64,000 nt of DNA, taken from positions 49,940-113,939 of IMG/VR virus record IMGVR_UViG_3300045988_136394; one strand, written 5' to 3'. Source of the stretch: a virus. Both the position numbers and the translations under genes were made by a program. Positions 32,578-32,881 of the stretch are shown here, in pieces. How positions within the stretch are numbered: position 1 is the first letter of the stretch; each line of letters begins with the position of its first letter. Under the pieces are notes generated by a model that was not told the DNA's origin, ran no database searches, and saw only the letters and a program-made list of their open reading frames with translations.

Positions 32578-32881
32578 TCAAGTAATATTAAGTAATCTAC
32601 ATTCGCATGAAAAACAGTATCTTCTAATATTGGCAAAAACCTATCATCTTGCACTGTTATTTCATATACCGTTTCCGCATACAAATTCACAGGAACGCCA
32701 ACGGTAGAATTTACTTTTGCATAGTAAGTTAATTCTTCTGTTTTAAAATCTGATATCTTAAAAGTTACAGGTAGGTCTATAATTCCCGGCTGATAATCAG
32801 GGCATTTCAGATAAAAATTTATAGTTACTACAGCGGGTATGTCCCCCCCGAATTTGCAATTAATACCCTGCGGCTAAACAT
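32578..32881 (-). pseudogene. Third MF(N/S)RR(L/V)L...SGG family gene, interrupted in a G7 (plus-strand C7) tract
   Basis: ATG at 32881 reads MFSRRVLIANSGGTYPL and then stops. Adding one G in the tract at 32843-32849 gives a 101 aa ORF, MFSRRVLIANSGGDIPAVV..., matching the paralogue 39858..40343. Confidence 0.5.

Follow-up and report, generated by a model that had tools for sequence, protein, structure and literature searches.

A guanine run at a fixed codon of a baseplate-island gene family in a human-gut phage: a candidate contingency locus in its OFF state

Introduction

When a gene is broken by one missing guanine inside a run of guanines, has the gene died, is the sequence wrong, or has a switch been caught in its off position? 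The question is raised by gene D, a small open reading frame (ORF) on the minus strand (32568..32881) of a 64,000-nucleotide (nt) stretch of viral DNA (IMG/VR record IMGVR_UViG_3300045988_136394, positions 49,940 to 113,939 of that record), the whole of which is referred to here as the window. Gene D is the third member in the window of a paralogous family with a common N-terminal leader, and it carries seven G's (G7) at a point where eight (G8) are needed to keep the frame. A preliminary description of the locus had left three readings side by side, namely a frameshifted pseudogene, a phase-variable off state and a homopolymer sequencing error. The evidence gathered here from the whole family gives the best support to the second of these, and on balance we lean towards gene D being a phage contingency locus in its OFF state.

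Results

Gene D loses its frame at a seven-G tract

The ATG of gene D (32881..32879) overlaps the TAA stop (32883..32881) of a 172-amino-acid (aa) upstream gene (32881..33399) in a TAATG motif at 32879..32883 of the minus strand, as had been seen before, and the two genes are therefore translationally coupled. The same overlap arrangement recurs in related contigs. The first ten codons (MFSRRVLIAN) and the first two bases of the following Ser codon make up the family leader (32850..32881, minus strand), which gene D has in common with the genes starting at 40343 and 39844 and with all paralogues found elsewhere. Directly behind the leader lies the poly-G tract, exactly G7 (plus-strand C7) at 32843..32849 in codons 11-13 and one short of the in-frame G8, as first described. 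The 0 frame reads ATG TTT AGC CGC AGG GTA TTA ATT GCA AAT TCG GGG GGG ACA TAC CCG CTG TAG, and this OFF-state frame (32828..32881) consists of 17 codons, MFSRRVLIANSGGTYPL, followed by the TAG at 32830..32828. Across the tract it is written (TC)G GGG GGG, a slippery heptamer of the form G_GGG_GGG.

Re-reading a single G turns the frame into GAC ATA CCC and opens 91 further codons. This body, in the -1 frame (32568..32843, minus strand), encodes DIPAVVTINFYLKC...LILLDSI and stops at the TAA at 32570..32568. With G8, gene D has 104 codons and ends at this TAA, which corrects the 101 codons and the feature end at 32578 given in the preliminary description. The G8-type product across the tract is MFSRRVLIANSGG-DIPAVV..., with the junction peptide ...IANSGGDIPAVV..., and a locked-ON allele of the tract would, for example, read GGTGGAGGC-GAC. 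In the G7 state the body is open and has no start codon of its own. Rescue by an alternative start was considered and rejected, no ATG, GTG or TTG being present in the body frame from the upstream stop to the tract. A TTG start enters the body frame only with G6, which accounts for database proteins beginning MQIRGD. By automated annotation gene D was left uncalled in most contigs, or was called from a TTG in the wrong frame.

Every family member carries the run at the same codon

A six-frame search of the window for MF[NS]RR[LV]L starts returned three genes only, all with G7 at the same codon, and the break in gene D lies, as had been proposed, in the conserved tract of the family, with this one member off by one G. 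Paralogue A (39858..40343, minus strand, 161 aa) is in frame, with its G7 at plus 40304-40310 (TCA GGG GGG GAT). The reported match between it and the repaired gene D (SGGDIP) holds, and the family has a further member in paralogue B (39539..39844, minus strand). Paralogue B is in frame at its 5' tract (G7+AAG, TCG GGG GGG AAG, plus 39809-39815) and is cut to 101 aa by a second homopolymer, a minus-strand C7 at plus 39543-39549. Alignment with three related contigs (L029, L013 and L028) showed that a deletion of ~430 base pairs at this second tract joins paralogue B to the body of paralogue C (39145..39538, minus strand), whose own leader and tract have been lost. With C6 instead of C7 at 39543-39549 the product would be an in-frame B::C chimera of ~230 aa; elsewhere the internal tract of paralogue B is C6 and in frame (L029, L013) or C7 and out of frame (L028). 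A second hybrid, an A leader joined to a C body at the G tract, was found in L023.

In all, the 64 kilobases (kb) of the window contain five G/C runs of at least 7 nt, against ~1.1 expected. Three of them are the leader tracts, the gene starting at 39844 has the fourth (39543-39549) at its 3' end, and the fifth is at 62326-62332. The clustering of G/C7 runs at the family codon exceeds chance. The fifth run (minus strand, ATG GGG GGG TTA) stands right after the start of a gene for a 94-aa Cys-rich protein (~62053..62334); it is G7 in nine of ten related contigs, and contig L041 has ATGGGGAGTT, with the frame broken and the gene uncalled.

Beyond the window, the G run was found at the same codon in every family member of every contig, both in IMG/VR and in ENA/Logan loci. 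The leader is common to 3-6 paralogues, and the member types were A (161 aa), B (231 aa), C (145 aa), D (104 aa), E (216 aa) and rarer variants. The leader follows the pattern M-F-(N/S/T)-R-R-(L/V)-L plus 2-4 residues, and after it comes (Ser/Pro/Gln/Gly)-Gly-Gly, written as 6-8 G's.

Tract length and frame vary among related phages

Related loci were collected in three sets: 19 IMG/VR loci found with the repaired gene D protein, 32 loci reached via exact copies of neighbouring genes and so not selected on gene D, and two loci whose full-length gene D proteins are the commonest ones. Tract lengths of gene D were counted in the 48 contigs with a gene D leader. The tract was G7 in 35 contigs, of which 34 were out of frame and one (L003) was restored by a +1 insertion 8 nt downstream. 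It was out of frame with G6 in four contigs and with G4 in two, and in frame with G5 in two, both of which had a second lesion. G8 was present in four, with 104 intact codons in L001, L068 and L069 and a large deletion in L059, and one contig (L005) had the interrupted, in-frame tract GGTGGGGG. The frame of gene D is thus restored by three routes, namely pure G8, the interrupted tract and the +1 insertion.

The other members vary in the same way. Gene A was ON with G7 in 15 contigs and OFF with G6 in four and with G8 in two, so that OFF alleles of both lengths exist among the relatives of the window's paralogue A, and two more contigs were ON through variants (L011, G8 with GAT changed to GGT; L023, interrupted, the A::C hybrid). 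Gene B was ON with G8 in five contigs, with G7+AAG in four, with GGGGGGAGAG in two (L006/L007, tabulated as G6/ON) and with further interrupted tracts in five; it was OFF with G7 in five contigs and with an interrupted tract in two. Gene C was ON with G7 in ten contigs and OFF in three (G6 in two, and G7 plus a downstream lesion in L025), and for gene E G8 was ON and G7 was OFF. The ON and OFF states combine independently, with 10 combinations among the 21 contigs that have at least three members; in L069, for example, gene D was ON and genes C and E were OFF.

These counts also bear on the reading that an error of sequencing or assembly has removed one G and that the real genome has G8. Homopolymers are indeed error-prone on some platforms, and the sequence here is a consensus. 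Nevertheless, the identical G7 was present in 34 contigs from other samples, obtained in different projects and with different assemblers; G8 was called normally in the same contigs (e.g. gene B in L008, L009, L028, L029 and L031); and tract lengths differed from each other within single contigs. Moreover, neighbouring proteins kept constant lengths in nearly all contigs (hub 288, spike 237, sheath initiator 242, DUF7338 204 and baseplate J 399 aa), and the essential genes had no frameshifts at A/T or G/C runs. With G7 recurring in 34 of the 48 contigs beside neighbours free of homopolymer frameshifts, the sequencing error suggested in the preliminary description is effectively excluded, and we regard it as extremely improbable. 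The on/off differences between related phages fit a mutational switch better than sequencing error. In a homopolymer census across the loci, G/C7 runs were off their modal length in 17 of 61 observations versus 2 of 233 for G/C5 runs, and variable A/T runs were mostly intergenic.

The run is conserved against codon bias and changes length rapidly

GGG is the rarest Gly codon of the phage (14.7% of Gly codons), and in 27 long ORFs GGGGGG encodes only 2 of 49 Gly-Gly pairs. All paralogues nevertheless use GGG-GGG flanked by more G's, and the Arg and Leu codons of the leader vary synonymously between paralogues. In a sister lineage, reached via a gene A homologue with 61% identity, five tandem members share the leader and keep a run of G6-G8; its start codons (GTG) and its Arg and Leu codons differ, and its tract states vary between contigs. 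The G run is conserved both against the codon bias and across this divergent lineage. Judged from codon usage, the tract is maintained by selection rather than by chance codon choice, because the run is found in all paralogue types and in the five sister-lineage members despite the rarity of GGG. A degenerate DNA pattern of the leader followed by at least G6 matched 50 stretches in IMG/VR.

The length of the run changes on backgrounds that are otherwise the same. Gene D bodies identical over 252 nt are found behind G7, G6 or G4, and L058 and L059 have one derived deletion in common, yet are G7 and G8, respectively. On trees of the flanks, parsimony put the number of length changes at 5-7 per tract and that of substitutions at 0.11-0.19 per flanking site, a 30-55 fold ratio that is an indirect estimate from consensus contigs. 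Two features of polyG contingency loci are present at the locus, a run of ~7 or more G's within coding sequence and frame-changing length variation among close relatives.

Recoding of the seven-G allele

Could G7 be the working state, with full-length gene D produced by -1 ribosomal slippage on G_GGG_GGG or by RNA polymerase stutter? The recoding product, identical to that of G8, would then be made at a low set level beside the 17-residue peptide. The 0-frame TCG GGG GGG ACA is a perfect X_XXY_YYZ heptamer with a long ORF in the -1 frame, a feature of TCG|GGG|GGG|ACA that the preliminary description had passed over, and the 0-frame stop comes four codons past the run. G7 is also by far the commonest length of gene D (35 of 48 contigs), occurring in diverged sub-lineages; gene B repeats this geometry in its common OFF allele (TCG GGG GGG AGC); and a hairpin from 5 nt downstream folds better than shuffled sequence (z = -2.3). 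However, the hairpin is not conserved, as the G7 contigs L010, L013 and L015 lose two stem pairs (CCCGCUG to CCCACUA) without compensation, and no Rfam element was found at the gene D tract. Nor is the site invariant, as would be expected of a recoding signal, since G4, G5, G6, G8 and interrupted alleles occur, in-frame G8 genes among them. The OFF states of gene A (G6) and gene C (G6) would need +1 rather than -1 slippage, and the body of gene D gave no clear sign of purifying selection. In characterised -1 sites GGG slips poorly when it occupies the A site, and stuttering by polymerase is known mostly from longer runs of A or T; both points count against recoding. We therefore consider recoding as the normal route to gene D improbable. 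Low-level leakiness of the one-G-short states is plausible.

Predicted nature of the proteins

The structure model of gene D is all-beta (pLDDT 62.6). In this model residues 2-10 and 15-25 form an N-terminal hairpin, and the tract encodes the Ser-Gly-Gly of its turn. The 231-aa paralogue had no match in a sequence search of the PDB. From the models, the family may consist of small adhesin-like beta-sandwich modules that dock to the baseplate via the shared N-terminal strand. A Tat or lipoprotein signal was considered for the MFNRRLL leader and rejected, sequence inspection showing no hydrophobic segment after the leader.

Switching or loss of gene D

A different history would also leave gene D with G7. 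Slippage from G8 to G7 may have inactivated a dispensable gene, the OFF allele may have spread and neutral decay may have followed, with no working switch in gene D. We judge this outcome possible but rather unlikely, and it takes up a good part of what speaks against the contingency locus. Gene D is OFF nearly throughout, and it was intact in none of the 29 contigs fetched via neighbouring genes. Secondary lesions have accumulated in it, including a nonsense change (L054), a 1-nt deletion (L051), large deletions (L033, L058/L059) and IS200/IS605 insertions (insertion sequences, IS; L019, P0060, P0068), and the dN/dS of the body was 0.44 versus 0.53-0.65 for off-frame controls, not clearly lower at a divergence where the measure is uninformative. 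Further points against a contingency locus concern the material as a whole: all the evidence is between-sample consensus sequence, the contigs are not all independent, some coming from the same samples, and G7-G8 tracts are short next to classical hypermutable tracts. As to the proposed function, genes A-D had no PHROG or Pfam match above threshold, the structure models were of low confidence (pLDDT 62.6 and 65.4), and the fold search with them returned insignificant matches.

Loss would likewise agree with the in-frame deletion between TGCAAA repeats that removes the tract in L017/L018, and with the frequent deletion or truncation of neighbouring island genes. A single nonsense change was observed against a neutral expectation of ~2.4, which is compatible with loss and cannot decide between the readings. 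On the other side, the 91-codon body was fully intact in 31 of 33 G7-OFF contigs. Intact pure-G8 alleles occur on near-identical backgrounds and on two haplotypes (L001/L069 and L068), and full-length proteins form clusters of 115, 469 and 48 member sequences, with 104-aa homologues P0001-P0007. The frame of gene D has been restored in three different ways, and in the sister paralogues the same tract toggles both ways and is mostly ON. The pseudogene reading of the preliminary description keeps some probability for gene D, which is rarely intact in nature; intact pure-G8 104-aa orthologues exist in close relatives (L001, L068, L069; P0001-P0007), which a unitary pseudogene would lack.

Gene D is also a recurrent target of IS200/IS605-family elements, with insertion after ...CTTTTAA (L019 from ~4085 onward; P0060 and P0068; L018 at 10262-11488). 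In many database variants (P0023-P0030, P0038, P0043) in-frame deletions are clustered near that site, and these may be excision footprints or assembly artefacts.

Genomic context and the phage

The gene D family is located in an ~8.6 kb island of small ORFs within the baseplate cluster of a contractile tail. In the sense of transcription the island is preceded by an E217_gp41-type hub (41489..42391) and a gpV-like spike (40774..41487) and followed by the sheath initiator (31436..32164), baseplate J (29598..30797), DUF7338, a Phage_Wedge1/DUF2612 protein and an 891-aa fibre-like protein. In the window the island is split by an IS607-type element (36418-38324) with a serine recombinase (37656..38324) and TnpB (36539..37702). 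A strong RAGATH-18 RNA match (69.8 bits, 36418..36490) just downstream of tnpB is probably the TnpB guide (omega) RNA region. The IS607-type element was seen only in the window's own strain (L020, L032), and other contigs have IS200/IS605 elements at other sites.

The phage is an uncultured ~50-kb myovirus with an E217/PB1-type baseplate and is very common in human-gut metagenomes, exact copies of two neighbouring 60-aa proteins being found in 10,160 and 11,864 blocks of the assembly collection, for the most part on ~50-kb contigs. The best INPHARED match was an unannotated human-faecal contig (baseplate J, 62.7% identity), and blastn of the region against INPHARED phages gave no match. No relative of gene D was found in GTDB species genomes, and baseplate J had only a 38% match in a Bacillota metagenome-assembled genome; the host is possibly a member of the Bacillota. 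The window contains two distinct myovirus-like structural modules in tandem on the same strand (1-24,000 and 24,900-57,700), and the identity between their large terminases (15872..17143 and 55747..56997) is only 29%. The second module corresponds to the prevalent ~50-kb phage, and the first has no G/C run of at least 7 nt.

An element repeated four times on the minus strand (~24735-24770, 38731-38766, 61940-61975 and 63932-63967) consists of TTGACA, a 17-nt spacer with GGGGGG, TATAAT and then ATAGACAA, a perfect sigma-70/sigma-A consensus. From their sequence, the four copies may be strong phage promoters. Their spacer varies between G6 and G7 among relatives.

Upstream of gene D lies a second small paralogous family (33416-33820, 32881-33399 and 34137-34511; proteins of 124, 134 and 172 aa) with Y-x-G-x-x-G-x-x-DG N-termini. 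Chimeras with the N-terminus of the 134-aa member and the C-terminus of gene D occur among metagenome proteins (P0019, P0039, P0045, P0062, P0069), of which P0019 reads through the G7 leader in the frame of the gene D body. The 134-aa gene has a G6 at 33563-33568, with one truncating G7 variant (L028). Four small Cys-rich proteins resembling CxxC zinc ribbons lie among the polyG genes (32360-32542, 32176-32358, 38836-39117 and 40432-40611), and few proteins of the phage are indexed as widely as two of these (>10,000 blocks).

Discussion

The reading of gene D that we prefer, with reserve, is a contingency locus found in its OFF state. Slipped-strand mispairing during phage DNA replication would add or remove one G, and the change would toggle each paralogue, independently of the others, between a full-length protein and a short stub. 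In these terms gene D would be OFF in the window (G7 where G8 is needed, with a stop after 17 codons), paralogue A would be ON, and paralogue B would be ON at its 5' tract and broken at the second, C7 tract. Slippage is the probable mutational mechanism, and switching would be reversible within a phage population. The proteins are predicted to be virion-associated and adhesin-like, and the switches would then diversify host recognition as a form of bet-hedging.

A fuller model can be put forward tentatively, and we consider it less probable than not in its entirety. Here the 3-6 adhesin-like baseplate paralogues, each with a poly-G switch in the shared docking leader, would give up to 2^n virion types per lysate with differing host-surface specificities; OFF states would be leaky through -1 slippage on G_GGG_GGG; and the leader would serve as a recombination handle for chimeras such as A::C and B::C.

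If the switches work as proposed, a widespread gut phage diversifies its virions combinatorially through simple replication slippage. PolyG phase variation would be extended from Campylobacter phages to the human-gut virome, and there would be a concrete, testable locus at which to ask how gut phages that are temperate or persistent deal with variation in host surfaces. Homopolymer "errors" at such loci in virome assemblies should not be polished away.

Programmed -1 frameshifting of the lambda G/GT type is known from phage tail genes. Gene D resembles that system in being a tail-module gene in which a slippery heptamer lies between a short 0-frame product and a longer one in the -1 frame; in contrast to it, gene D has no conserved stimulator, its tract length is not fixed and in-frame alleles exist. 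Other switches of phage tropism, as summarised in citing papers, are the invertible segments Mu G and P1 C and the diversity-generating retroelement of BPP-1. They resemble the family described here in the stochastic choice of alternative receptor-binding modules within one phage genome; here, by contrast, there is no invertase-flanked segment or reverse transcriptase, and paralogues in one orientation would be switched by frame.

Nearer parallels are found in homopolymer tracts. Contingency loci have been described in T2/T4 and other phages (Gomez, Barrick and Waters, bioRxiv 10.1101/2025.10.21.683753), and they are alike in consisting of coding homopolymers of at least 6 bases whose reversible frameshift by polymerase slippage is read as bet-hedging. 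The same preprint refers to PB1-like phages with a polyG tract in a baseplate gene (Ceyssens 2009). In coliphages such repeats are under-represented in tail-fibre and infection genes (bioRxiv 10.1101/2025.10.21.683753), whereas here they are concentrated in one paralogous baseplate-island family at one conserved position. The closest case among phages is that of the Fletchervirus phages of Campylobacter, whose receptor-binding protein genes are reported, in papers citing the original study (Sorensen et al., Cell Rep 2021;35:109214), to contain hypermutable polyG tracts of 7-11 G. Both have poly-G runs of at least seven in tail- or baseplate-associated genes, several per genome, in which length shifts the frame between ON and OFF, and the proposed role in both is phenotypic diversity of virions. 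The present phage differs in being a gut myovirus with an E217/PB1-type baseplate, in having tracts of mostly G7-G8 as against G7-11, and in placing the run at a fixed codon of a leader common to 3-6 paralogues; its switching and any receptor binding are predictions from sequence.

In this last respect the family recalls a bacterial system. The opa genes of Neisseria form a set of ~11 paralogues with CTCTT repeats in the signal-peptide region, each switched ON and OFF independently. There, too, a slippage-prone repeat lies within the conserved N-terminal leader of every paralogue and yields combinatorial surface repertoires; the opa repeat is a pentanucleotide in a bacterial gene and the leader is a cleaved signal peptide, whereas the phage family has a mononucleotide run in a leader for which a beta-strand and then a Gly-Gly turn are predicted. 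Set beside these systems, the novel elements are the phage lineage, the gut setting, the fixed leader-embedded run across a whole paralogous family and the combinatorial states found in nature.
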